IMG/VR virus record: IMGVR_UViG_3300038463_000101
Span: 1-58,538 of that record
Origin: a virus
Lineage: Duplodnaviria; Caudoviricetes
Length of the DNA stretch: 58,538 nt
Strand: one strand, 5' to 3'
Shown here: piece by piece, positions 2,100 through 30,781 of the stretch
Layout: every line of letters starts with the position of its first letter
Numbering within the stretch: the stretch's first letter is position 1
Made by a program: the position numbers and the translations under genes
The notes under the pieces: model-generated
The model's input: the letters and a program-made list of their open reading frames with translations, nothing else
Told to the model about the DNA's origin: nothing
Database searches by the model: none

Positions 2100-3536
2100 A
2101 TGGACCCCAACCCATTCCTTGACGCCGCCGTCCATGCCGCCACTGGAGCCGGAACCAATGGCAACGTCACCGGCACTCTCACCTTCCTCCTCACCCGCCT
2201 TCTGACCACCAAAGACGCCACGCAACTCTACGCGCCGGAACTGATGCGGGCCGTGGCTGCGGCGCCGGGGGCTGAACAGCGCGGCGTGCAGCGCAAGCTC
2301 AAGGCGGCTTTTGGCCGGGATATGAACTCGCAGCAGTGGTGGGCAGACGTGAAAGAAGCTGGGGCCACCCTCGCCACAGCGCTGCCAAGCCATCTGCAAA
2401 CCTCACAAAACGGGACAGTTAAGCCGAACCTTGCCAACGCTATCACCATCGTCAGGCAGGAACTCAAGCTGGGCTACGACCAATTCGCCAACAGGGTCAT
2501 GCTCCTGGGGCCTACGCAATGGGGGCCACCACGCGCCTGGTGCGACCACGACGACATCGGGCTAGTCAACTACCTCCAACAGCAGGGAGTGAATCTGAGC
2601 GCTACGCAGACGGCAAATGACGCGGCTTTATACGTGGCTCGCGAGTCTTCCTTCCATCCAGTCAGAGACTGGCTAACCGGCCTCAAATGGGACGGCACGC
2701 ATCGCCTGGACTCCTGGATGGCACGGCATTTGGGTGTAACTGACTCTCAAATCAACTACTTGCGTAAGATAAGCTCGGCTTGGTGCATATCCGCCGTGGC
2801 CCGTATCCTGAATCCGGGGTGCCAGTCTAAGAACCTCATCGTCTTGGAAGGACCGCAAGACGTGGGCAAGTCCAAGGCGCTGCGGGCGCTGACGAACGGC
2901 CATCTCAGCGCGGATTCCGGGATTCAGTGGTTTCGCGACCAGCTTCCCGACATTGACCACGCGGAAATAGGCTCCTACATGCAAGGCGTCTGGATTTACG
3001 AGATAGGCGAGCTGGCCGCCATCCGTGGCAAGCGATGGGAGCGCGTGAAAGACTTCATCTCCTCCCAGGCTGACATTTTCCGGCGCAAATATGGCCGCAA
3101 TCTCGAAACGTATCCGCGCCAATGCCTCTTCGCTGGCTCAACGAACGAGACACGCTGGGGCGGCGATCCGACCGGCCTGGTGCGCTTCTGGCCGGCCTAC
3201 GTTAATCGCGTTGACGTGGACGGCATTCTCCGCGAGCGCGACCAGATTTGGGCTGAAGCTGTCTTCCGCTATCAGGACGGCGAGGACTGGTGGGGGGATG
3301 AGAACTTCAAGGAACTCGCGCGAGTCGAGCAGGAAAAGCGCCAACCTGACGATGCCTGGACCGATAAAGTCCAACGTGCTTGCTCGTTAAAGACCGATGT
3401 TTCCGTATTAGAAATTATGGAAGCTCTGAACATCCCGCTGGAGAGGCAGGACCAAGTGGCGCATCGCATCACGCGAGCGCTGGGGGTGTTGGGGTGGAAG
3501 AGGGAAGGACGGCGTTACACGAGGGAGGGTTTGTAG
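2100..3536 (+). CDS. VapE/VirE-family primase-associated helicase
   Basis: FHPVRDWL..LKWDG..RL, Walker A GPQDVGKS, WIYEIGEL, YPRQCLFAGSTN, DPTG..RFWP, RDQIWAEA. Confidence 0.9.
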   Translation: MDPNPFLDAAVHAATGAGTNGNVTGTLTFLLTRLLTTKDATQLYAPELMRAVAAAPGAEQRGVQRKLKAAFGRDMNSQQWWADVKEAGATLATALPSHLQTSQNGTVKPNLANAITIVRQELKLGYDQFANRVMLLGPTQWGPPRAWCDHDDIGLVNYLQQQGVNLSATQTANDAALYVARESSFHPVRDWLTGLKWDGTHRLDSWMARHLGVTDSQINYLRKISSAWCISAVARILNPGCQSKNLIVLEGPQDVGKSKALRALTNGHLSADSGIQWFRDQLPDIDHAEIGSYMQGVWIYEIGELAAIRGKRWERVKDFISSQADIFRRKYGRNLETYPRQCLFAGSTNETRWGGDPTGLVRFWPAYVNRVDVDGILRERDQIWAEAVFRYQDGEDWWGDENFKELARVEQEKRQPDDAWTDKVQRACSLKTDVSVLEIMEALNIPLERQDQVAHRITRALGVLGWKREGRRYTREGL

Positions 3537-8980: not shown

Positions 8981-9037
8981 CTGGTAGCGTGTGGGGGGTT
9001 GACAGGGCGGCTGGTAGCGTGTAGACTGGTAGCGTGT
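8981..9037 (+). promoter_or_regulatory. sigma70 promoter with three CTGGTAGCGTGT boxes
   Basis: TTGACA(8999)-17-TAGACT(9022); CTGGTAGCGTGT at 8981, 9011, 9026. Confidence 0.75.
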
Positions 9038-10928: not shown

Positions 10929-11513
10929 ATGCCGTTAAAAAGCCAGACATTACCAAATAAGCGTCTCACCGGCCTCGAACTGATGGCAATTTTGAAAAAG
11001 CATTTCCACGAGATGCTGTCTCGTGATTATGCGTTCACGCCAAACGTGGCTTACGGCCGCGTGGCGGTGAATCTCACAGTGACGCTGCACATTGCCGGGG
11101 TGACCTCCGAGCATGTGGTGCGGTCGTATACCAAGGCGGATGGCGTTATTGAAGGTGAGCCTCCGCTGGCCGACCCGGTGGAAGAGGATGCCGCGCTGAT
11201 TGCGTTGAGCCGGGATTTGAAGATTGATAATCCGAACTTGGAGCGTGTTGCGGCAGATTTGCCCATCGTGTTTCAGCAGCGAGCACAGCAACAGGCCCCG
11301 CAGGAATGGACCCCGCCATTGCCGGGGGAGCCGCCGCCGGATGCGATTATCAAGCCGTATGACGTGGAGACGGTGGAGGTGCGGTATGACAAGGCGCAGT
11401 ATCCAGCGGCGCCGGAGCCGGTAGACCGGGACGTGTCGGCGGAGAAGGGTAAGGAGTTGGGTGTGCCGCATCATGTACGGAAGGGAGCGATGATGAAGGA
11501 GCGGAAAGGATAG
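10929..11513 (+). CDS. hypothetical protein
   Basis: 194 aa ORF in operon orientation. Confidence 0.65.
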   Translation: MPLKSQTLPNKRLTGLELMAILKKHFHEMLSRDYAFTPNVAYGRVAVNLTVTLHIAGVTSEHVVRSYTKADGVIEGEPPLADPVEEDAALIALSRDLKIDNPNLERVAADLPIVFQQRAQQQAPQEWTPPLPGEPPPDAIIKPYDVETVEVRYDKAQYPAAPEPVDRDVSAEKGKELGVPHHVRKGAMMKERKG

Positions 11514-12798: not shown

Positions 12799-15045
12799 GT
12801 GTATGCCAACGCCATCACCGAAGAACGTCTCGGCATCGCCGAAAACGACCTGCGATTCCGGCTTGAGTACCACTCTCCCGGCGAAATTGACGCCTTCAAC
12901 CAACAGTTAGAGGCAAAGTACTCAGCCGAATACGCCGCCGCGCAAGTAGCGGCAGCAGGCACCGAAGACCCCGCGAAGTCCTTCCAGGTGTCTCTCCAGC
13001 GAGCTTTGTGCGGGACGACGCCCCGGCTGTCCAGCGAGGAAGTGCGGTTCATCCAGAATGAACGGGCGCTGGTGATGATCGACTGCGCGTACTTCCTGAC
13101 GCGCTACTACTTCATCAAGACGCCGCAGGCCATTCAGCGGTTTACCTTCCTTCCCGGTCAGCGGGCTTACTTCAACGTCATCGCAGAGCTAGAGTCGCGC
13201 TATTCGCCTATCGAGATGATTATTTGCAAGGCGCGGCAGCACGGCATCAGCACGGCTACCGAAGGGATCATTTTGCACCGGGCGGTCACCCATTACGGCG
13301 TGAACGCGGTCGTCGCCAGCGCACAGCGGCAGTCAACCGGCAAGATGGCGCAAATGACCTTTCTTGGTTATGACCGCTTGCCGTGGTGGGTCAGGCCGCT
13401 CAGCACGCGCCGGGTGGAGTCGGATCAAGGCATGTTGGTGTTTGGGTCTTCCGAGTCGGGAATCAGCTTCCAGCACGGTAACCAGCGGTACGGCATCGCG
13501 CGTGGCGACACGGTTAAAATCTACCATCTCTCTGAGGTGGCGTCTTATTCAAATGCCGTCGATTTGATCGAGGCTTCGCTATTTCGTTGCGTCCATCCGC
13601 ACCCGGACGTGTTCGGCGCTCTGGAATCCACGGCGGAAGGCGACACCGGCTGGTGGTACGACAAGTACGGGCAGGCGAAGAAGGACTGGAAGAATAACCG
13701 CTCGCGGCTGTGTCCGCTGTTTTTGCCCTGGTTTATCGGCACCGACAAGTATCCGACGCCAACATGGGCTAGAAATCACCCCGTCCCGACGAACTGGCGG
13801 CCATCGCAAGAAACCCGGCAGATGATGGCGAAGGCTGAATTGTATGTGCGGTCGGCTCCGGTACTCGGAAAGGTGTTGGGAGCCAACTGGACACTGCCGC
13901 GCATTCAAGCCTATTACTGGGAGATCCACTTCCAGGAAGCGCGGGCCACCGGCACGGAAAAAAAGTTTTTCCAGGAAATGCCGACCGACGATGTGGACGC
14001 TTTCCAGGGGTCTTACGATAACGTGTTTGGCCGGGAAGTGATCGCCGATGTCTGGACCAAGCGCAAGACTTCTTACGCCGTCTACGGCTTGGTGGGCCAG
14101 TCTATCGAGGCACGCCACGAGCCGGATAACGACGACGTGGATTTAAGCGAGCGCATTGTGCCGGTGACGTATGTGAACCGGAAAGGGCCAACGTATCGCT
14201 GGGAATTGTGGCCGTTGCAGTGGGCCGAGCCGTTTGGTGAGTTGACCGATATTCGCGATGATGAATCCCACATGGGCAAGCTGTTCGTGTGGGAAGCGCC
14301 AGTGCCGGGGTACGACTACGCGATTGGGGTGGATACCGGCGGTGGGACCGGCGGCGACTCGACGTGCATCTCTGTGGCGCGGCGTGGCCGAAGCCCGCAG
14401 GAGCAGGACGTGCAGGTGGCCGAGTGGCGGTCGAACCTGGTGGGCCACGTCGAAGCGTTCGCCTTTGTGATGCCGATTGCCGCTTACTACGCCCGCTATA
14501 TGGAGGAAACGACGAACTACCGCGAGCCTTACGTAGCGGTCGAGCAAGTGGCCAGCGTGGGCGACACGGTAAACGTGCAGATGAGCAACATGGGCTATGC
14601 GCGGTTCCATAAAATGATCCGGTATGACAGCGTGCCAAAGCAGATGCGGAGAGCGAAGGCGCATAAGCGCGGCTGGTTCACGCACGGCTGGTCGCGGCCC
14701 ATCCTCACTGACGGCTTTGTGATCCTTGTGAAAAATGGCTGGTATGTGGTCAACTCGCCCTACACCATCCGCGAGATGAGCCAGTGGGAAGTGCATTTCA
14801 CGGCTGGCGACAAAGAGAAATTCGAGCACTCCGAAGATTTCACCGACGATGGAATCTTTGCTAACGCGATGGCCGGCTTCTGCCCGAACGATACGAAGAC
14901 GCAGGCGGAACGCACAACCAAGCAATTTACGGCGCAAGACAAGCTTCCAGCGCTGGACATTGCCCCGTTTTGCGGCATAACGTTGTGTCCAGATGGGCAT
15001 GGGGTCGAGGACGCTACCGGGTTAAGGGGTATGATGAGGAGATAA
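12799..15045 (+). CDS. terL: terminase large subunit
   Basis: KARQHGIST (Walker A variant), HLSE (Walker B), ALESTAEG, FLPW, FFQEMP, AIGVDTGGG nuclease Asp, DDGIFA. Confidence 0.9.
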   Translation: MYANAITEERLGIAENDLRFRLEYHSPGEIDAFNQQLEAKYSAEYAAAQVAAAGTEDPAKSFQVSLQRALCGTTPRLSSEEVRFIQNERALVMIDCAYFLTRYYFIKTPQAIQRFTFLPGQRAYFNVIAELESRYSPIEMIICKARQHGISTATEGIILHRAVTHYGVNAVVASAQRQSTGKMAQMTFLGYDRLPWWVRPLSTRRVESDQGMLVFGSSESGISFQHGNQRYGIARGDTVKIYHLSEVASYSNAVDLIEASLFRCVHPHPDVFGALESTAEGDTGWWYDKYGQAKKDWKNNRSRLCPLFLPWFIGTDKYPTPTWARNHPVPTNWRPSQETRQMMAKAELYVRSAPVLGKVLGANWTLPRIQAYYWEIHFQEARATGTEKKFFQEMPTDDVDAFQGSYDNVFGREVIADVWTKRKTSYAVYGLVGQSIEARHEPDNDDVDLSERIVPVTYVNRKGPTYRWELWPLQWAEPFGELTDIRDDESHMGKLFVWEAPVPGYDYAIGVDTGGGTGGDSTCISVARRGRSPQEQDVQVAEWRSNLVGHVEAFAFVMPIAAYYARYMEETTNYREPYVAVEQVASVGDTVNVQMSNMGYARFHKMIRYDSVPKQMRRAKAHKRGWFTHGWSRPILTDGFVILVKNGWYVVNSPYTIREMSQWEVHFTAGDKEKFEHSEDFTDDGIFANAMAGFCPNDTKTQAERTTKQFTAQDKLPALDIAPFCGITLCPDGHGVEDATGLRGMMRR

Positions 15046-15744: not shown

Positions 15745-17824
15745 CGCCCTCATGGGCTCGATGCCCGACGCATGGCGCGAATGGCAAGCGCCGGTTTACA
15801 ACGCCACCGAAGATCGCAAAATCGGTTGGCTGAACGAGGCGTGCCAAGAGGGCAACTCGTGGCAGCAAGGGCAGCGCGGCTTCGATGATTGGAGCAAGGC
15901 GCTCGACATCTTCGCCGGAACCTACTCCGACAAGAACGCCTTGCAGTACCGCAGCCAGTTCACAGGAAACCGGCTGAAGACGAATATCCGCGTGACCGTG
16001 GCGGGCCTCTCCGCCATCCGGCCTTGGTCGGGGTACACCGCGAGCGATGCTTTCAAAAAAGAAGCGCTCATGATGAACCTCACCACGCGGTCGCTGTATC
16101 TGGCGAACCACTGGGATCTGAGCATCAAAGAAGCGCTGTGGTGGGCGAGTGTAACCGGCGGCGGCTTTGTGCGGCCTGTGTTCCGGCGCGACATGGCAGG
16201 GCAAGGCCACGGCAGCATCCAGTTCGATACTTGCGGCTGGCCCAACGTATTGCCCGTTCAACTGCCTTCAAACGGGGACTTAAACCGCGCGTATGCGGTC
16301 ACTTACCTTGACGAGAAGCCGATATGGGAGGCGCACGGCATCTTTCGGGACTTTCAAGACCGCCTGAAGCCCACGAGCAGCAAGTATTGGTACTCGAATC
16401 AAATCCGTAAGGCCAGTCAAGCGAACGCCGAGCGGCGGTTTTGGACGAATCCTTTTAAGAAACGCGAGCAGTCGGACTCGGCCAAGCTCCTCATTCCGAT
16501 TCGATACACGCGCATCAACGACCTAGCCATCAATACGACGGGCAAAACGATTTACATGGGAGAGGAAGGCGCAAGCTGGGCCTATGAAGTGCCGAGCTTT
16601 GGCGCGGAGATTCCGACCGGGACCGATAGGGACGGCCACCCGACCTACCGCAAGGCAGAGATTCCCGACTGCCGGCTGTATCCCTACGGTCGCATGATGA
16701 TCAGTTCGGAAAACTGCGTGATGTACGACGGTCCCGACTTCAACTGGCACGGCGAGCTTGACCTGATTCTGTTCTCGCTGGAACGCTACCCTTGGGAGCC
16801 GATGGGCTTCTCGATGGTGCATGACGGTTGGGGCTTCCAAAAGGCCATCGACGGGCTGGACCGCGGCAATCTCGACAAAGCGAACGCCGACATGGATAGA
16901 CCGTTGGCGTACAACATGAACGCGGTCGGCAAGCGTGAGGCTAATCAGGTTGACTTGATGCAGCCCCGGCAGCGCATCGCCTTCGACGGGGACGCGGTAG
17001 ACAGGCCGTTCACGCAAATCGCCCCTGACGACGTTTATAAGATCAGCCCAGAGTCCTTGGCGCTGAAAGACAAGTTCGAGCAGGGCATGGACTACACGCT
17101 GCAAACCCGCGACGTGGTGGAACTGGCGAAGGCCCGCGCACTTGGAAAGGGCATCGACCAACTCGAAGCGCTCATCAGCGCATCCGGCCCACTGGTGAAA
17201 GAGATGTCGCACGGCATGGAAAAGCCGATTTGCCAGCTTGCGAACCAAGTCAAATACTTGGTCCTGCAATATATGGACACGTCGCAACTCATCCCGTTTA
17301 TCACGGAATCTGGCGCGGCGCATGTGTTTGACTACAATCCTTCTGAGCTAACACCGTCGCACCTCCCCGGCGAGTTGACGACCGACGCCAACGGCCAGCC
17401 GGTCGGCTCACCCACCACACGCATCAACCGGGCTCGTTGGTTTGCCCGCAACCTTCCTTTCGTCTGCACGCCGCACAGTATTCATGAGATTCACCAGATT
17501 CAGCACATTCTCATGAAGATGCAGATGAAGCAGCGTGGCGCCCCAATACCGTGGGCGGATATTATGGAAGCAGCCAGCTTCGAGGACGTGAAGCGGCCAA
17601 CAGGGTCCACGATCCAAGAGCGCTTTTTCAGCGAGACTGAGGAGCAAATCGAGTTCCAAATGCGGCTGGCGAAGGCCGCGCAGGGCTTGGGCATTGATAT
17701 TGGGCAGTTGATGGGTGCGGGTGGTGCGGGGAAGAAGCCGGAAGGCCGGCCGCCCAGCGGACAAACTAGCCCAAAAATGGAACAAAAAGGCGATGGCCGT
17801 CCTGTTATTTCCGAGAGTGGTTGA
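15731..17824 (+). CDS. portal protein
   Basis: ~690 aa after TerL, YPYGR motif, low-complexity C-terminus ending GRPVISESG; assignment by size and synteny. Confidence 0.75.
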   Translation: MLLSSALMGSMPDAWREWQAPVYNATEDRKIGWLNEACQEGNSWQQGQRGFDDWSKALDIFAGTYSDKNALQYRSQFTGNRLKTNIRVTVAGLSAIRPWSGYTASDAFKKEALMMNLTTRSLYLANHWDLSIKEALWWASVTGGGFVRPVFRRDMAGQGHGSIQFDTCGWPNVLPVQLPSNGDLNRAYAVTYLDEKPIWEAHGIFRDFQDRLKPTSSKYWYSNQIRKASQANAERRFWTNPFKKREQSDSAKLLIPIRYTRINDLAINTTGKTIYMGEEGASWAYEVPSFGAEIPTGTDRDGHPTYRKAEIPDCRLYPYGRMMISSENCVMYDGPDFNWHGELDLILFSLERYPWEPMGFSMVHDGWGFQKAIDGLDRGNLDKANADMDRPLAYNMNAVGKREANQVDLMQPRQRIAFDGDAVDRPFTQIAPDDVYKISPESLALKDKFEQGMDYTLQTRDVVELAKARALGKGIDQLEALISASGPLVKEMSHGMEKPICQLANQVKYLVLQYMDTSQLIPFITESGAAHVFDYNPSELTPSHLPGELTTDANGQPVGSPTTRINRARWFARNLPFVCTPHSIHEIHQIQHILMKMQMKQRGAPIPWADIMEAASFEDVKRPTGSTIQERFFSETEEQIEFQMRLAKAAQGLGIDIGQLMGAGGAGKKPEGRPPSGQTSPKMEQKGDGRPVISESG

Positions 17825-18636
17825 TGAGTAGAAGCGTAAACATCTATACATTACTCGATCCCGTTTCCGGAGAGCCGCGCTATGTCGGCCTAACTCGCGA
17901 CATGAAAAAGCGGATGCAGAACTACGCTTACAAAGCACACAATAAACACCTCGATAGATGGCTGAAGAAGTTGAAGGCTGAAGGTAGCGGGCCGCGCGTT
18001 GTCATTCTCTGCGTCATACCGGAAGAAGTGGCGGATAAGTTCGAACGTCGCTGGATTCGCCGGATGCGACAACGCGGCTTCAACCTCATGAACTACACAG
18101 ATGGTGGCGAAGGTGCGTTTGAGTTCTCTTTAGAATCCAGAAAAAAACTGTCGGATTTGATGAAAAATAGGTGGGCAGATAATCGCGAAAAGATGATGGC
18201 TGAGTGCCAAAGCCCAGAAGTAGCGGCGAAGCGAGCATCGACTCGCGGCCCACGATCCGGCAGACATAACGCGATCTGCGGTGAGCGGATTACCAAGCTA
18301 AACAAGTCTCGGCGTGGCGTGCCGCTTTCGGTTGAGCATGTGGAAAAAGTTAGACAATCAATTCTTAGCAAGAAGATCGTTAAAACGCCGGAAGAGAGGG
18401 CCGCTATATCAGAAAGAATGAAAAAGCGTTGGCGCGAAAACGAAGCCTATCGAGCGGCCGCCATCGCAAGGCTCAGTACGACCCAATTCAAGGCCGGTAA
18501 TGCGGAAATAGCACGGCGTGGCGGATTAGCTTCTCACGCAAAAAATCCAGACAACGCGAGAAAAGCAGCATTAGCGGCGATGGCCGTGATGGAGCGAGAT
18601 CCTAAGACGGGCAGGCTGGTAGGCAGGAAGCGATGA
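17821..18636 (+). CDS. GIY-YIG homing endonuclease with NUMOD3-like repeats
   Basis: IYTLLDP...YVGLT...R...E...N.TDGGEG; SLESRKKLS and EERAAISE repeats. Confidence 0.85.
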   Translation: MMSRSVNIYTLLDPVSGEPRYVGLTRDMKKRMQNYAYKAHNKHLDRWLKKLKAEGSGPRVVILCVIPEEVADKFERRWIRRMRQRGFNLMNYTDGGEGAFEFSLESRKKLSDLMKNRWADNREKMMAECQSPEVAAKRASTRGPRSGRHNAICGERITKLNKSRRGVPLSVEHVEKVRQSILSKKIVKTPEERAAISERMKKRWRENEAYRAAAIARLSTTQFKAGNAEIARRGGLASHAKNPDNARKAALAAMAVMERDPKTGRLVGRKR

Positions 18637-18821
18637 AAGAACTTCTCACCACCCGCACTGTAACCCGAAAGCGCACCTTCGAGGCCAAAACATCGGATGA
18701 CGTGAAGCATGTTGTCGATAAGCTCTGCCATGAGAATCACACTGGCCCAGTGCGTATCGAGATGTCGCAAGGCGGCCTCAGAGCGGTCATAGCGGAGGAC
18801 CATGCTACGCTATCTACTTGA
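18633..18821 (+). CDS. hypothetical protein
   Basis: 62 aa, ATGA overlap; TG.V.I..SQGG pattern. Confidence 0.55.
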   Translation: MKELLTTRTVTRKRTFEAKTSDDVKHVVDKLCHENHTGPVRIEMSQGGLRAVIAEDHATLST

Positions 18822-18847
18822 CAGGCGCGTAACGCAAGCCGTATGAT
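18818..18847 (+). promoter_or_regulatory. sigma70 promoter for head genes
   Basis: TTGACA-18-TATGAT, flanked by CTTGACA/TGTCAAG inverted repeat. Confidence 0.7.
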
Positions 18848-18908
18848 TTTGTCAAGCGCGTAAGTTATAGGCAGCGGGCGGTAGAGTAGGCCGCACGCAG
18901 CCACTAAA

Positions 18909-18949
18909 AAGGGATTCTTATTGAACCCGAAAGGGTCAACATAAGCCCC
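18909..18949 (+). ncRNA. structured RNA leader motif copy A
   Basis: AAGGGATTCTTA-TTGAACCC-GAAA-GGGTCAACATAAGCCCC; second copy at 30547. Confidence 0.6.
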
Positions 18950-18980
18950 GGAGCCGAAAGGTTTCCGGGGCTTTTTGTAT
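18943..18980 (+). terminator. intrinsic terminator overlapping motif A
   Basis: AAGCCCCGGAGCC-GAAA-GGTTTCCGGGGCTT followed by TTTGTATTT. Confidence 0.8.
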
Positions 18981-19002
18981 TTGCAGGGAAGGGAGGTAGC
19001 CA

Positions 19003-19068
19003 ATGAACGATTTTGGTAAAGTTGCCAATCGCCACAAAAAGGGCGGCAAGAAAAAGCACAAAAAGTAA
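19003..19068 (+). CDS. 21-aa Lys-rich peptide
   Basis: MNDFGKVANRHKKGGKKKHKK; RBS GGGAGG. Confidence 0.6.
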   Translation: MNDFGKVANRHKKGGKKKHKK

Positions 19069-19189
19069 TCCCACCCTTGCCCACCGGACAACGATAGGCT
19101 CTGGCCTATCCCCGATGCACAAGGGTCAACCGTAGGTCAGGGGCGGGCGTAGGACGACGTACCGCCTCATAAAAACAAGGAGCCATGTC

Positions 19190-19267
19190 ATGAAGAAGAT
19201 GGGCAGGAAAAAGAGCAAGATGAAGGGCGACCTTCACAGTAAGGGCGGCATCGGTAAGGGCAAATAA
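19190..19267 (+). CDS. 25-aa Lys-rich peptide
   Basis: MKKMGRKKSKMKGDLHSKGGIGKGK; RBS AAGGAG; TAATG coupling to next gene. Confidence 0.65.
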   Translation: MKKMGRKKSKMKGDLHSKGGIGKGK

Positions 19268-19551
19268 TGGCATCGCAGCCCATCCCGGCCCCCAGCGGCG
19301 GCAGTCCCAGCCCGGAGTCAAACCCCGGACCTGGCGGTGGCTTTCCGTCACCGGCTCCCGCGCAGACGGACCCGAATGCGGCAGCAGCCACAGAAGCGGT
19401 CATCAAAACCGTGCAGTCAATGCGCATGGTCGGCGAGAAATACCCGCAGACCGTGAGCAAGGTGAAACAGATTAACGATTTGATCGCGCAAATCATTCAG
19501 GACATTAAGGGTGGACAGGGGCCAACGGAACCGAAGGCACCGCCAGTGTAA
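19267..19551 (+). CDS. Pro-rich hypothetical head-region protein
   Basis: 94 aa upstream of scaffold. Confidence 0.7.
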   Translation: MASQPIPAPSGGSPSPESNPGPGGGFPSPAPAQTDPNAAAATEAVIKTVQSMRMVGEKYPQTVSKVKQINDLIAQIIQDIKGGQGPTEPKAPPV

Positions 19552-19554
19552 TTT

Positions 19555-20409
19555 ATGCCGAAACTAGAAGAACTTTATAAAGCCAAAGGGTTTACGGATG
19601 CGGACCTTGAACTACTCAAGCCGCTCCTGACCGACCAGCGCTACCGCAGCGTGGTCGAGGAAACCCTGCAAAATCTTGAGACTGAAGCCACTCTATTCAA
19701 GACCGAGAACGAGCGTTGGGACGCATGGCACAAAGGCGACGGCCAAAAGCTCATGAACGACCTGGAGCGCGAGAAGCTGGAAGCCATCGAACGCGCGGCC
19801 TCCCTCGAAGCTCGACTGAAGGAAGCGGAGAAATCCGGCTTTTCTCCTCGCCGTGAAGACCCCGCGCCGAACCCAAACCCCGCCACTCCCGCAACGCCGG
19901 CCTTCGACGCTAAAAAGCTCGGACTGGTCACGATGGATGACGCCAAGCGTTTTCTTGAAGCGGAAGGGCAGGCCATCGCGCAAGCCGCCGACATCATCGA
20001 AGAGTACCGCATCCTATCCGGCGGCAAGTCGCTATTCGACTACGAATACCGGACGCAGGATGGCCGCACGCTGCGCGGCATGGAAGCGATACGCGCCGAG
20101 AAGACGGACCCGAACATCAGCCTCAAGCAGTTCGCAGCCAAGAAATTCGACTTTGAAGGCAAGCGCAACGCCATCGCGGAGAAACAAAGACTGGCGGCCG
20201 AAGAAGCCATCCGCGCCGACGAACGCGCCAAATTCGTTCAGCAATACGGCCAGCCGGGGCAAGGCCCGATGATGCCGTCGAAAGAGCCGTTCATCCCCCG
20301 CCCGCGCGAAGGCACAACCGGCCATCCGTGGGAACGCGGCAGCGCCTCGGAACAACGAGCGCAGCGCATTGAACGCGCGATGAAAACGCAGATACAGGCA
20401 GTGAATTAA
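19555..20409 (+). CDS. putative capsid scaffolding protein
   Basis: Charged helical/coiled-coil 284 aa directly upstream of the capsid gene. Confidence 0.65.
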   Translation: MPKLEELYKAKGFTDADLELLKPLLTDQRYRSVVEETLQNLETEATLFKTENERWDAWHKGDGQKLMNDLEREKLEAIERAASLEARLKEAEKSGFSPRREDPAPNPNPATPATPAFDAKKLGLVTMDDAKRFLEAEGQAIAQAADIIEEYRILSGGKSLFDYEYRTQDGRTLRGMEAIRAEKTDPNISLKQFAAKKFDFEGKRNAIAEKQRLAAEEAIRADERAKFVQQYGQPGQGPMMPSKEPFIPRPREGTTGHPWERGSASEQRAQRIERAMKTQIQAVN

Positions 20410-20420
20410 GGTAACCAACT

Positions 20421-21590
20421 ATGGCAAGCCCGGACCCTTTGTTTGACCAAATTTCCGCTACCACTCTCAGCGATCTCCGACGCGATGCTGTGCAAGATAA
20501 CTTCTTTGTCGAGGGCGCATGGCAGCGCATCACGCGCTACTACCACGCGGAAGATCCATTCTTCGGCGGGACATGGATGCAAGAGCCGTTCATGTTCAAC
20601 CGCGTGAATGGCGGCGCGTACAACCCCGGACAGGACGTCGAGGTAGCGCAGGTGCAAATCCTCGCGGCAATGGCCTTCCAGCCACGCGCCTACAAGGAAG
20701 ACGTTCCGATCAATATGTGGCAGACGGAGGTGATTAACGCGGGACCGGCAGCGGCAGTGAGCACCTACGACACGTATATGACGAACGCGGTCCAAGCGCT
20801 GTCAACCGATTTGAATATCGACGCCTACCAGCATGGCCAGCCAGCCAGTGCCACCGTCACCAATAACCGCGTCATCTTCATGAACGGTATTGACGAGGCA
20901 CTGAACGATGGCGTCAACCCGACCGTCTACGGCAACATCTACACCACCTATGGCGGGCAGACGCGCAATGGGCAAGTCGGCAACGTGCTGAATGCGATTC
21001 CGATTTGGGCGGGCGACTCCAACGGCAATACCGGCCCCGTCTCCTACGGTCTTCTGTTCGGCGGGTCTTACCTGAATTGCGTGCAAGAACCGGACACCGG
21101 TCTTTGCAATAAAGCGGCTTTTGGCTACATTGCCAACCGCAACGAGCCGAAACAGCGGTTCGCGCAGGAAGAGAAGGATGTTCGTATCGGCTTGACCGGC
21201 TTCCGAATCATGGACGCCATGATTCACGTTGACAAGCTGGCGCCCTCGACCAAGTTCGGAAACATTCTGCCTTCCGGCCTCTCGCAGACGACTCCTGGCC
21301 CGCTGTCCAACTTCACCAGCCCGTCGTATTCCCCGGTTGTTGGGTCTAGCAACACGGTATCCAACTTTCCGGCCTCGAAGACCTGCCAGCCCGGTGAGCC
21401 GTTCTACTGGCTCCGGTTGCAGGACTTCAAGTTGCGGCCCGCGCGTAGCCCGGAGTACAACCACAATTTCACGCCGCCGATTCGGACGCAGAACAACCCG
21501 GATTTGATCGTAATGTTTTACAAAGCCGCCACAAATTATTACACGACAAGTCCAAGAGATAACAGCATGGTAGTTGGAATCGGCTCATAA
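20421..21590 (+). CDS. major capsid protein
   Basis: 389 aa after scaffold; QISATT...DNFF...GGT...EPF N-terminal pattern of HK97-fold capsids; synteny. Confidence 0.8.
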   Translation: MASPDPLFDQISATTLSDLRRDAVQDNFFVEGAWQRITRYYHAEDPFFGGTWMQEPFMFNRVNGGAYNPGQDVEVAQVQILAAMAFQPRAYKEDVPINMWQTEVINAGPAAAVSTYDTYMTNAVQALSTDLNIDAYQHGQPASATVTNNRVIFMNGIDEALNDGVNPTVYGNIYTTYGGQTRNGQVGNVLNAIPIWAGDSNGNTGPVSYGLLFGGSYLNCVQEPDTGLCNKAAFGYIANRNEPKQRFAQEEKDVRIGLTGFRIMDAMIHVDKLAPSTKFGNILPSGLSQTTPGPLSNFTSPSYSPVVGSSNTVSNFPASKTCQPGEPFYWLRLQDFKLRPARSPEYNHNFTPPIRTQNNPDLIVMFYKAATNYYTTSPRDNSMVVGIGS

Positions 21591-22268: not shown

Positions 22269-23042
22269 ATGGCATCAGGACGTTTCTCAAAACAGGCGGT
22301 TTGGACCGGCCCCCGGCAAATCAACAGCAATAACGCCTTCGACAACCAGATTGGCGGGACGCTGAACACGTTCCCCGGCGGCGTAACGGCGACCGGCGCG
22401 AACCAAGGATTCCAAACCCTCCCTGGCGACCGCGTGATTTTATCGCCTTCGGACGCCCTCGTTTGGTCGAACAACAACGTCGGCAACCTGTATACCGGCA
22501 CATTCCGGTATGTGTCGATGCGGAACAACTCGACGGCCACGCCGGAGCGAGCACGCGCGGCATTCTGGGATCTGAACGCGGCTGGCGGAAACAACAACGT
22601 TTCGAGCGAGGCGTCCGATGCGCTCTATCAGGTGACCCCGGACGAAGGGGCGAATAGCTCTGTGGCGTTCATGGCGGGCGTTTATATCAACAACGTTTCG
22701 GTGAACAACAACAATTCCTGGTACTGGTGGATTCAGGAATCTGGCAAGACGAGTGTGCGCTTCGTTGGGAACAACGGAACTGTGGTTTACGGGTCGGGAG
22801 CGAATAACAACCTGGCGGCCGGAGCGGCGATTGCCAGTGGCGTTTACCTCGCGGCGGCCAGCAACGCGAACAACCAGCTCACCGTGGGCCTGTTCAACAC
22901 GTCAGGAAACGCGAACGCGACAACGAACAACCTGATCGACAATATGCTGGTGCGCTACGTTGGGCCGGCGGAAACGGCTCCGACGAACGGGAATATCTCG
23001 CTGGTGGACATCACGTTGGCCAGAGCATCGTTCCGGTGGTAG
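22269..23042 (+). CDS. Asn-rich putative capsid decoration/minor head protein
   Basis: Follows the capsid gene; FRYV and WWIQESG features; ~15% Asn by hand count. Confidence 0.6.
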   Translation: MASGRFSKQAVWTGPRQINSNNAFDNQIGGTLNTFPGGVTATGANQGFQTLPGDRVILSPSDALVWSNNNVGNLYTGTFRYVSMRNNSTATPERARAAFWDLNAAGGNNNVSSEASDALYQVTPDEGANSSVAFMAGVYINNVSVNNNNSWYWWIQESGKTSVRFVGNNGTVVYGSGANNNLAAGAAIASGVYLAAASNANNQLTVGLFNTSGNANATTNNLIDNMLVRYVGPAETAPTNGNISLVDITLARASFRW

Positions 23043-23077
23043 AATAGCCGTAATCGTAAACATTCCTCCGAAGCGAG

Positions 23078-23116
23078 AACCGCCAGTAGCCGAGCCCCTC
23101 GGACTGGCGGTTTTTG
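23078..23116 (+). terminator. intrinsic terminator
   Basis: AACCGCCAGT...ACTGGCGGTT followed by TTTG. Confidence 0.75.
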
Positions 23117-23131
23117 TTATGATTGAGCCGT

Positions 23132-28795: not shown

Positions 28796-28881
28796 TTCTG
28801 CCGCCTGCGGAAGCGGTTAGTTAAGCGGCGTCGGGCCGTCGCGAGTCAGAAAAGCCCGGTTGAGAGTGCTCCAACCCTAAC

Positions 28882-28918
28882 GGGCCGTCTTTCCTACCAG
28901 AGACGGCCCTTGTTTTTG
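28882..28918 (+). terminator. intrinsic terminator preceded by structured RNA (28791-28885)
   Basis: GGGCCGTCT/AGACGGCCC followed by TTGTTTTT. Confidence 0.7.
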
Positions 28919-28930
28919 CGATACTGAAGC

Positions 28931-29929
28931 ATGGCGTTTTTGGACATGTATCAAGAAATAACCGGCTTGATACCGAAAATGTCAGTGGATTACGCCATGA
29001 CGCTCGTGAATAGGGCATGGCGCGACATCCGGCGTCAAAATCTTTGGTCATTCCAACTCTTCGACGCCAATTGGGTGAGCCCGAATCTCATTTCAGGCGT
29101 AGGCACCTGCACCACCGTTCAAGGATCGAATCAGGTAGTTTTCAATTCGACGGCCGCCGCCGCGCTGAACGCCATTTACCCCGGAGGGCCACTACCGAAC
29201 GGCTTGCTTTCCAGGCAATTCCGCGTTGGCATCTCCACCATCTACAACATTTGGGCTTGGAACAGCGGCACATTAACCATGACGCTCGACCGGCCTTTCA
29301 CCGATGTCGGCGGGAGCGGGCAGGGATTCACCATTTTCCAGTGCTATTACGCGGCCCCGTATCAAGACTTCCGGTGTTGGATCAACATTCGGGATATCGT
29401 CAATTTCAACAATCTGAACATCAACGGCACGCGCGAGCAAGTGGACAAGATGGACCCGCAGCGCACGCTTTTCTATCTGCCGACATGGTGCGTCCCGTAT
29501 CAGCAAGACATGAATCCGGCCTCGGCGACGTACACTTGGCCGATGTTCGAGTTGTGGGGGCAACCGCAATACTCGCTGGTCTACCAACTTTACGGCATCC
29601 GGCGCGGAGTGCCGCTCGTAAACGATACGGACACGCTGCCGCCACCCATCGGAGAGGACGTGGTGATTGCGCTCGCCGGTTCTTACGCCTACCGGTGGGC
29701 GGAAGGAACGAAAGGCGACATGCCGCGCAACGTGGGTGCCGACTTCAAATTCCTCATCGGCTCAACGATGGCGGAATACAAGAGGCTTTATAGGGACTAT
29801 CGGCTGCAGGACCGAGAGCTTGTCGATAACTGGTACAACGTTTATAATCGACCGCAGGTGTTCACAAATTTATGGGGTTACTACAACTCGATCGGAATGA
29901 CTGCTAATCCAGGCGCGGCCTGGGATTGA
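28931..29929 (+). CDS. putative head-tail adaptor protein
   Basis: LVNRAWRDIR...WSF N-terminus, inserted beta-rich domain, FELWGQP; podophage adaptor-like. Confidence 0.6.
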   Translation: MAFLDMYQEITGLIPKMSVDYAMTLVNRAWRDIRRQNLWSFQLFDANWVSPNLISGVGTCTTVQGSNQVVFNSTAAAALNAIYPGGPLPNGLLSRQFRVGISTIYNIWAWNSGTLTMTLDRPFTDVGGSGQGFTIFQCYYAAPYQDFRCWINIRDIVNFNNLNINGTREQVDKMDPQRTLFYLPTWCVPYQQDMNPASATYTWPMFELWGQPQYSLVYQLYGIRRGVPLVNDTDTLPPPIGEDVVIALAGSYAYRWAEGTKGDMPRNVGADFKFLIGSTMAEYKRLYRDYRLQDRELVDNWYNVYNRPQVFTNLWGYYNSIGMTANPGAAWD

Positions 29930-30526: not shown

Positions 30527-30546
30527 TTCGCTACAATCAACCATGT

Positions 30547-30596
30547 AAGGGATTCTTAGCGAACCCGGCTTGCTTGCGCGGGTGAACACAAGCCCC
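30547..30596 (+). ncRNA. structured RNA leader motif copy B
   Basis: AAGGGATTCTTA-GCGAACCC-(13 nt)-GGGTGAACACAAGCCCC; TACAAT -10 at 30532. Confidence 0.6.
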
Positions 30597-30607
30597 TGTC
30601 TCGATTT

Positions 30608-30781
30608 ATGAAAGACAGGGCAAAAGACCGCAGAATCCTCGAAAGCGTGGGGAAAGAGCTTCGCGATAATCCACCGCGCCAGCTCGCCAAAACCGCTAAG
30701 AAATCCGGCAAGAAACGCGCCAATAAACAGCGTGTCGCCATTCTGCTTTCCAAAGCTCGGTCCAAAGGGGCCAGCGTGTGA
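30608..30781 (+). CDS. small basic protein (57 aa)
   Basis: Hand translation MKDRAKDRR...KQRVAILLSKARSKGASV; GTGA overlap with next gene. Confidence 0.65.
   Translation: MKDRAKDRRILESVGKELRDNPPRQLAKTAKKSGKKRANKQRVAILLSKARSKGASV

Follow-up and report, generated by a model that had tools for sequence, protein, structure and literature searches.

Why does one short, apparently structured RNA element occur twice in the genome of an uncultured phage, once directly before the head genes and once before a small gene that is followed by tail genes? The stretch analysed here, called the window throughout, is an entire IMG/VR virus record of the class Caudoviricetes (IMGVR_UViG_3300038463_000101, positions 1 to 58,538; 58.5 kb, completeness estimate 93%). 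It carries copy A at 18911-18949 and copy B at 30549-30596, both on the + strand and both read directly in the window. An original prediction, made from the letters of the sequence, had seen in the two copies a two-state switch, either a riboswitch-like aptamer or a protein-bound antiterminator, that gates the head and tailspike operons. The observation itself is confirmed and the interpretation is partly supported. We favour, with about even confidence, a reading in which copy A is the leader of the late head operon, terminates transcription by default and is read through by means of a factor that recognises a conserved box and the hairpin P2 behind it.

How antitermination times late genes is, to our knowledge, known in detail for only a handful of model phages of enterobacteria and Firmicutes. 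The window appears to belong to a large and abundant family of peat and soil phages that shares the logic of a late switch without a recognisable Q, N, NusG or sigma gene. The lack of a recognisable factor gene points to a novel factor or to an RNA-only mechanism, acting on the polymerase of a host from a poorly studied phylum.

Two copies of one motif

The copies share the gapped pattern GGGATTCTTA-NN-GAACCCG-N(3-12)-GGGT-N-AACA-N-AAGCCCC. The window contains this pattern just these two times, no dinucleotide shuffle of the window (0 of 100) reproduces it, and the other 219 fetched loci lack it altogether. Three blocks are held in common, namely GGGATTCTTA (12 identical nt together with the two preceding A), GAACCCG and GGGT-N-AACA-N-AAGCCCC, and the loop between the second and the third is 3 nt long in A and 12 nt in B. 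With this variable loop excluded, 34 of 38 aligned positions are identical when counted by hand. Judged from the sequences, the likeness of A and B is far beyond chance. The 5' 18-mer of the motif has no further match in the window even at 3 mismatches; in IMG/VR this 5' half matched nine loci, all coding or otherwise unrelated and lacking the 3' half, and these were set aside.

The element had not been recognised as a member of a known family, and Rfam 15 bears this out. The whole window has no match at gathering scores, the surroundings of A and B give only noise, far below gathering scores, at E <= 10, and 14 related loci give tRNA hits only. A limited literature search turned up no paper on the motif or on the phage family. 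The conservation ascribed to the unpaired internal-loop bases (AACA etc.) does not extend beyond this genome, as they are common to only its two copies. Paralogues share more than orthologues in the window (A and B) and also between L068 and the second copy in the related locus L069. Such an excess is expected if both copies answer to one genome-specific factor, as with the nut sites of lambda; a recent duplication would look the same.

A conserved leader before the head genes

Copy A is embedded in a series of predicted transcription signals on the + strand. A sigma-70-type host promoter found by promoter scan (18818..18847, TTGACA-18-TATGAT, 11 of 12 consensus matches) overlaps with its -35 element the stop codon of an upstream 62-aa open reading frame (ORF). 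It is followed by an extra 5' hairpin with TAGAGT in its loop (18870..18902; RNAfold of 18854-18985, z = -4.5), which is specific to the longer leader of the window and has no counterpart in the relatives L012 or L013. Next come box A, GGGAUUCU (18911..18918), the sole sequence element conserved family-wide; the hairpin P2 (18921..18939), predicted by RNAfold with an ACCC/GGGU core and a GAAA loop; and AAGCCCC (18943..18949), with which the terminator starts and which may double as the 3' strand of an outer helix P1 by pairing to the CUU and GGG in the box region. This double use had been part of the original prediction, and RNAfold agrees: an intrinsic terminator ahead of the scaffold and capsid genes (18945..18982) has its predicted stem at 18945-18971, a GAAA loop and then UUUUUGUAUUU, with the U-tract UUUUU at 18972-18976 and a fold of -30.9 kcal/mol for the 66-mer. 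A simple terminator scan missed it, apparently owing to a bulge in the stem. The first gene past the terminator is a 21-aa polybasic micro-ORF with a strong Shine-Dalgarno site (19003..19068), starting 31 nt after the start of the U-tract.

Two resemblances within this leader were considered and dropped. A word at 18877-18888 is similar to ops, the site where RfaH is loaded, but L012 and L013 do not conserve it, and no NusG paralogue was found in the window. A likeness to boxA was dropped as well, as not conserved in relatives, and the box is not known to resemble boxA.

The major capsid protein has 474 relatives at E <= 1e-10, and alignment to it fetched 46 viral and 80 metagenome loci. The 83 loci that entered the comparison (82 fetched and the window) were reduced to 48 non-redundant ones by keeping one per distinct capsid start with at least 2.3 kb upstream. 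In the stretch 1150-2600 nt before the capsid gene, where the strongest candidate was taken, a terminator could be called in 45 of the 48. A box with at most one mismatch to GGGATTC lies within 85 nt before it in 29 of the 45 loci compared with 12.1% of random windows (binomial P ~2e-16), and TTGACA-N15-19-TAnnnT lies upstream of the leader in 23 of the 45 compared with 1.5% of random 130-nt windows.

The resulting cassette of ~150 bp is found with capsids down to ~55% identical and typically has this order: a consensus promoter, the G-rich box, P2, a 3-6-nt A-rich linker, a strong terminator and its U-tract, then a Shine-Dalgarno site and a tiny, very basic ORF 14-51 nt past the U-tract, followed by a 94-aa ORF, scaffold and capsid. 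The orthologous terminators are predicted to be strong, with U-tracts and energies of -20 to -47 kcal/mol, and mostly start with G(G)CCC. In 20 of the 23 promoter-bearing loci the -10 element ends 5-15 nt before the box, which thus lies between about -2 and +9 counted from the predicted transcription start; the exceptions are the window (63 nt) and L013/L015 (35 nt). Distant subfamilies carry the variant boxes GGATTCG, GGGACCCA, GGGTTCCA and GGCATCCT. As a marker, exact GGGATTCT was rejected as not diagnostic, falling mostly into coding sequence in five distant whole genomes and three more records.

The association with the head genes holds at the level of whole genomes. In each of four distant ones, only the consensus promoter upstream of the capsid has a leader and a terminator behind it. 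The window has seven consensus TTGACA...TAnnnT promoters, of which one, at A, has a leader and terminator behind it; its early promoters lack the box. L069 has a second cassette, consisting of a promoter-like site, box, P2 and terminator, before the orthologue of the window gene at 28931.

Some features of the leaders were noted beside these. The anti-Shine-Dalgarno-like CCUCC, often as CCUCCGAG, is present in 21 of the 45 loci (30 occurrences, background 16%), mostly in the apical loops of P2 and the terminator hairpin (for example L035, L048, L054, L117 and L023), and its complement GGAGG is rare in leaders (2 of 45). CCUCC is absent from copies A and B and present in a leader of the window at 23052-23079. 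In L071 three tRNA genes (3021-3343) lie directly upstream of the leader, whose box is at 3404. The genome G005 (loci L171-L174) has two tandem promoter-plus-terminator units ~150 nt apart upstream of the head genes at ~29480-29760, the first of them without a box.

RNA structure of the leader

RNAfold gave one common layout for 22 leaders. In 27 of 29 leaders, the segment between box and terminator is predicted to form 5 or more pairs (median z -2.4 relative to shuffles). Window A, window B, L012 and L013 served as seeds of a covariance model, which found 12 further hits, representing 9 distinct sequences, at E <= 1 in 718 kb; these lie on the coding strand in leader positions and include both L069 cassettes, a few sources not being individually cross-checked. 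In a further 578 kb, comprising four complete distant genomes, the loci of a 57-aa protein discussed below and the nine chance 18-mer loci, the model gave a single hit, a known leader. Model and database search together recover homologous leaders with a covarying inner stem and indicate conservation across a large phage family. The model is usable to annotate late operons in soil viromes.

In an alignment of 13 distinct leaders, compensatory changes occur in 4 of 4 core pairs of P2, together with G-U pairs. Paired P2 cells amount to 92%, compared with 77% in column shuffles (0 of 500 reach the observed value) and 56% when slid by one column, figures that lean towards structure since the alignment was fitted to the model. 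A MAFFT alignment of the 13 leaders aligned P2 poorly, misaligned L017 and was not used for the model. On this comparative evidence P2 is a real RNA helix, and the claim that pairs are kept while the loop varies stands for the inner stem.

The outer helix P1 is a different matter. Its GGG/CCC and C-G pairs are invariant in the 13-leader alignment, and because they never vary P1 is neither supported nor refuted. The nascent 39-45-nt RNA of A is predicted to fold into P1 and P2 (-12.1 to -13.8 kcal/mol), P1 overlapping the terminator by 3-4 nt; the fold proposed as common to both copies is thus predicted for nascent A and is not the predicted fold of B. A comparable helix, with one compensatory change, joins the box region of a second subfamily to bases at and immediately ahead of the start of its terminator. 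Local pairing of the box with GAAC(C/U)C, in competition with P2, is a further option in the window, L012 and L013. Among 37 hand-picked leaders, one of whose rows (L020) was mis-set, cognate pairing between the 5' and pre-terminator parts is slightly above non-cognate (P ~0.015-0.02); only 4 of the 37 beat shuffles and the signal comes mainly from the base of P2, so that it was not counted for P1. By prediction the box itself is wholly single-stranded in 14 of 29 leaders and paired in several subfamilies.

Copy B and the gene behind it

Copy B (30549..30596, +) consists of the box at 30549-30556, a longer P2 stem-loop at 30563-30583 and AAGCCCC at 30590-30596. The covariance model (R1) gives it 46.1 bits by construction, as B is among the four seeds. 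Both copies had been placed just downstream of a promoter, which for A is confirmed as a consensus match; at B, a possible -10 element TACAAT (30532..30537, +) was read by eye without a convincing -35 element, and the promoter scan of the window lists no promoter there. The predicted fold does agree with the description that copy B runs into CCCUGUCU (30594-30601), which pairs with AGACAGGG (30613-30620) around the AUG at 30608. This hairpin (30594..30620, +) has 7-8 bp and holds the AUG in an 11-nt loop; it has no U-tract and so is not a terminator. Copy B is the 5' untranslated region (UTR) of the 57-aa protein and of the tail genes that follow. It cannot act on a terminator and, by its predicted fold, more probably alters the folding of the mRNA at the start codon.

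The 57-aa basic protein (30608..30781, +) belongs to a widespread small-protein family with 70 homologues, whose N-termini align to the AUG at 30608. Its match to DUF6496 is weak and below the cut-off, and by eye the ORF has no Shine-Dalgarno site. The family (loci L183-L221) has a near-invariant central and C-terminal motif and is found in very different phages, where the gene is often preceded by another lysine-rich ORF or an AT-rich promoter-like stretch.

None of 36 distinct upstream regions of the homologues in other loci carries a box leader, IMG/VR yielded no relatives of the genes on either side of copy B, and a B-like site is missing from L014. No orthologues of copy B were found. Because the box leader is missing before the homologues and the flanking genes lack relatives, copy B is, as far as sequence comparison tells, a lineage-specific, within-genome paralogue of the recognition element of A. 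This divides the idea that the two copies gate the head and tailspike operons. Copy A does sit between a promoter and a terminator before the head genes; the gating of the tailspike by B is conjecture, because B has no terminator, no orthologues and a predicted fold that differs from that of A.

Proposed default termination and its alternatives

If copy A is a terminating late leader, the strong host-type promoter would fire constitutively from the start of infection. The nascent RNA would bear the G-rich box and P2 and then meet the strong intrinsic terminator, leaving a short RNA of ~65-125 nt as the default product. Scaffold, capsid and micro-ORF, which lie behind the terminator without a promoter of their own, would be expressed only on read-through, for which a phage-encoded or phage-induced factor would recognise box and P2. 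Such a factor could make the polymerase terminator-resistant in a nut-, put- or Q-like manner, or could keep the box base-paired (P1) with the start of the terminator and thereby block terminator formation. We observe the sequence and its conservation, the matches to promoter and terminator, the covariation in P2 and an RNA-library contig across the terminator; that the leader terminates in vivo and needs antitermination, that a factor exists and of what kind, and what B does are inferences.

Several observations are consistent with this reading. Past the U-tract it is just 14-51 nt to the next start codon, which has a Shine-Dalgarno site, in 35 of the 45 loci, and in most loci a separate promoter would not fit in between. 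A contig from a peat metatranscriptome library, 100% identical to the window, covers 18877-19205 and thus box, terminator and micro-ORF; as it crosses the terminator, read-through RNA probably exists. Since the distance from the promoter varies and the box is internal in the window leader, the sequences lead us to favour a box read as RNA rather than DNA.

Other observations weigh against it. The metatranscriptome contig is single, of low depth and maybe DNA carry-over in the library; the cover of the late region consists of sparse contigs, whose gaps carry no meaning. The locus counts are phylogenetically non-independent, with near-duplicates such as L031/L038 and L035/L098, and for L016, L030, L051, L055, L070 and L071 the terminator picks were spurious or true leaders were missed, those of L071 and L030 being recovered by other routes. 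Copy A of the window is itself atypical in its 63-nt distance from promoter to box. Apart from the invariance of its pairs, P1 with P2 is far weaker than the terminator fold of -30.9 kcal/mol once the 3' arm has been made. The searches for NusG, Q, sigma region 2 and known antiterminators described below yielded no factor candidate, and the conserved 62-aa ORF is uninformative as one. Finally, the box also precedes genes without a terminator, at copy B and in L182, where it lies 22 nt before the ATG of a gene that has a distant relationship to window 10929-11513. The box may thus have a purpose other than antitermination, for example in mRNA stability, processing or translation.

Two other explanations seem unlikely to us and still deserve weight. 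One sees the cassette primarily as a small-RNA (sRNA) gene, whose short product acts in trans on host or phage mRNAs and whose head genes are expressed by leakage, a view that is compatible with an antitermination leader. A promoter of its own, a box, a hairpin and a Rho-independent terminator with a U-tail are the typical layout of a base-pairing sRNA, the box is unpaired in about half of the predicted leader folds (14 of 29), and in most relatives it starts within a few nt of the predicted start site. There is also a precedent, as the short terminated PR' late transcript of Stx phages is reported to be a functional Hfq-binding sRNA, StxS (PMC7547250). A 7-nt complement of the box, AGAAUCC at 30632-30638, lies 75 nt past copy B inside the 57-aa ORF, and the minimum-energy fold of 30545-30650 pairs box B with it (z = -1.95); however, AGAATCC shows no enrichment in the window, with 7 copies against 6.1 expected, and conserved R-I-L codons explain the site. 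In the window the box is moreover not at the 5' end, given the distant promoter and an RNA contig that starts at 18877, and in several subfamilies it is predicted to be paired. The position directly before the most-needed late genes, which have no other promoter, would be left unexplained. The other explanation, to which we would likewise assign a low probability, dispenses with a switch: the terminator would be a constitutive partial attenuator or insulator that sets the ratio of packaging to head genes, and the box a promoter-proximal or 5'-UTR element for promoter escape, mRNA stability, processing or translation. The occurrence of the box in 5' UTRs without a terminator, its narrow placement around the predicted start in 20 of the 23 promoters and the negative regulator searches would all fit, and the enrichment of CCUCC in leader hairpin loops (21 of 45 loci against 16%) hints at translational coupling. 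Yet terminators of -20 to -47 kcal/mol behind consensus promoters would be wasteful for the most-needed genes unless regulated, and a covarying P2 between box and terminator would be left without a role.

Of the two forms of switch originally proposed, the small-molecule aptamer is very improbable and the least likely of all readings. Here box, P2 and P1 would bind a ligand that stabilises P1 against the terminator, in keeping with the overlap of P1 and terminator in A, with the P1 and P2 fold predicted for the nascent 39-45-mer and with the compensatory change in the P1-like helix of the second subfamily. An aptamer is argued against by a family-wide conservation of only 7-8 nt, the box, beside which the hairpin is free in sequence and length: P2 ranges from ~5 to more than 12 pairs with unrelated loops, and no junction or internal loop is conserved beyond a single genome. 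A single hairpin extended by 3-7 pairs offers little binding pocket, and neither the window nor 14 related loci match Rfam. Hardly more probable, in our view, is a self-contained micropeptide switch, in which basal read-through would make the 12-28-aa polybasic peptide, which would then bind box and P2 in the manner of an isolated arginine-rich motif and lock the outer helix or the polymerase against the terminator in positive feedback. If true, it would give all-or-none control of the head genes, and through copy B the tail genes would come under this peptide as well.

Comparison with known systems

By analogy, the cassette is of the late-leader and antitermination type with a different RNA element, and not a new category. 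The lambdoid PR'/tR'/Q arrangement resembles leader A in having a host-type promoter with an immediate intrinsic terminator before the late head genes, a short terminated RNA as default and further terminators in the late block. It differs in that no gene of the Q families (PF06530, PF03589) was found in the window, that no -10-like pause element is recognisable after the start, the box being not clearly -10-like, and that some genomes, the window and L069, have two cassettes. Unlike in qut, the distance between promoter and box varies (5-15 nt; 35 and 63 nt), which fits an RNA site better than a place where a factor loads on DNA.

In architecture alone, the cassette is also like lambda nut, with a conserved linear word and a hairpin between promoter and terminators. 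In both, the hairpin sequence varies between phages and is common to the copies within a phage. As with lambda N, a gene for a small, very basic peptide lies close by, here immediately downstream. Unlike N, the micro-ORF encodes only 12-28 aa rich in lysine and histidine and lies behind the terminator rather than before it. Lambda N bridges to NusA and the polymerase, and a product of 12-28 aa is too small for that.

Structured nascent RNAs that promote terminator read-through and are operon-proximal in mobile elements include HK022 put, B. subtilis EAR, Tn916 canT and pLS20 conAn2, and put is reported to need no phage protein (PMC11658703, PMC9378689). Leader A resembles these elements as a structured RNA near the start of a long operon. 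It has no sequence or Rfam similarity to them that we could find, and a self-acting element of this type would make a terminator 3-6 nt behind it pointless as a switch. Furthermore, put consists of two stem-loops, whereas the cassette has one variable hairpin after a linear word.

Regulators of the LicT/BglG-RAT and ANTAR kinds stabilise antiterminator hairpins that overlap a terminator. The cassette is similar in that P1, if it forms, ends its 3' strand in 3-4 bases that also belong to the 5' arm of the terminator, and a local block of this sort would fit a promoter of its own for each cassette. The overlap is, however, limited to 3-4 invariant G-C pairs, the cassette has neither the two-hexaloop pattern of ANTAR targets nor RAT-like internal loops, and no LicT/BglG or ANTAR regulator domain was found among the ORFs scanned with Pfam and PHROG. 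RfaH and other NusG paralogues that act at ops differ in that no NusG-like gene (PF02357) was found in the window. Base-pairing sRNAs are like the cassette in architecture only, having their own promoter and a terminator hairpin with a U-tail.

Candidate factors, micro-ORFs and further late terminators

Six-frame searches found no match to NusG (PF02357) in the window, none to the Q families PF06530 and PF03589 at E <= 1 in the 58.5-kb record and none to sigma region 2 in the window, and among ~40 ORFs scanned with Pfam and PHROG there was neither a phage RNA polymerase nor a known antiterminator. Since none of these was found, transcription would depend on the host enzyme. The ORF of 62 aa at 18633-18821, which lies after the portal-sized gene and before the leader promoter, is conserved as an ORF of 62-75 aa at the same position in 5 distinct relatives (L012, L013, L068, L070 and L073; 7 loci matched). 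Its model (pLDDT 83) shows a small alpha/beta fold of the order beta-alpha-beta-beta. Nothing in the PDB matches this fold at E <= 0.001, the sequence has no family match, and as a Q-like candidate the protein is uninformative.

In 35 of the 45 loci the first gene past the called terminator is a micro-ORF no longer than 30 aa that encodes 8 or more K/R/H residues. These micro-ORFs encode 12-28 aa, ~50% of them K/R/H, often with a K/H/G-rich tail, and have a strong Shine-Dalgarno site; they show no detectable homology and form an unannotated gene family of interest by itself. The product may be a counter-ion of packaged DNA or a regulator. Subtypes of the micro-ORF track those of the box, a match that probably reflects phylogeny.

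Two more units in the late block of the window carry terminators and lack the box, both on the + strand. At 23016..23118, inside the late genes, promoter and terminator scans place a weaker promoter-like site and, within ~35 nt, an intrinsic terminator (stem 23080-23110). At 28858..28918, a hairpin and an intrinsic terminator (28882-28909) end 22 nt before the ATG at 28931, with no room for a promoter. Terminators between late genes (23080-23110; 28882-28909) mean that read-through would be needed repeatedly.

Gene content and source of the phage

The head genes behind the terminator (19267..21590, +) encode a 94-aa ORF, a 284-aa scaffold-like protein and a 389-aa major capsid protein, the latter two at 19555-21590; they have no PHROG match, and 'capsid' and 'scaffold' are named from position and number of relatives. 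Upstream lie the large terminase (12799-15045) and a portal-sized protein of 697 aa. Between the portal-sized gene and the conserved 62-aa ORF sits a 271-aa ORF (17821-18636) with a weak PHROG match to homing endonucleases. Because tblastn finds no match to it in the related loci searched, this ORF is probably a mobile insertion. Pfam and PHROG scans further list a primase zinc finger, a VapE-like helicase, a serine recombinase and a glucosaminidase.

The phage is uncultured, and metagenomes from peat and permafrost contain the same DNA. The GenBank phage collection yielded no related record, and the GTDB species genomes no prophage relative of the capsid. One capsid relative lies on a contig labelled Terriglobales, a weak indication of the host. 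Between 8960 and 9530, CTGGTAGCGTGTAG-like words are directly repeated three or four times across the early consensus promoters at 8999 and 9503, and these repeats look like operators.

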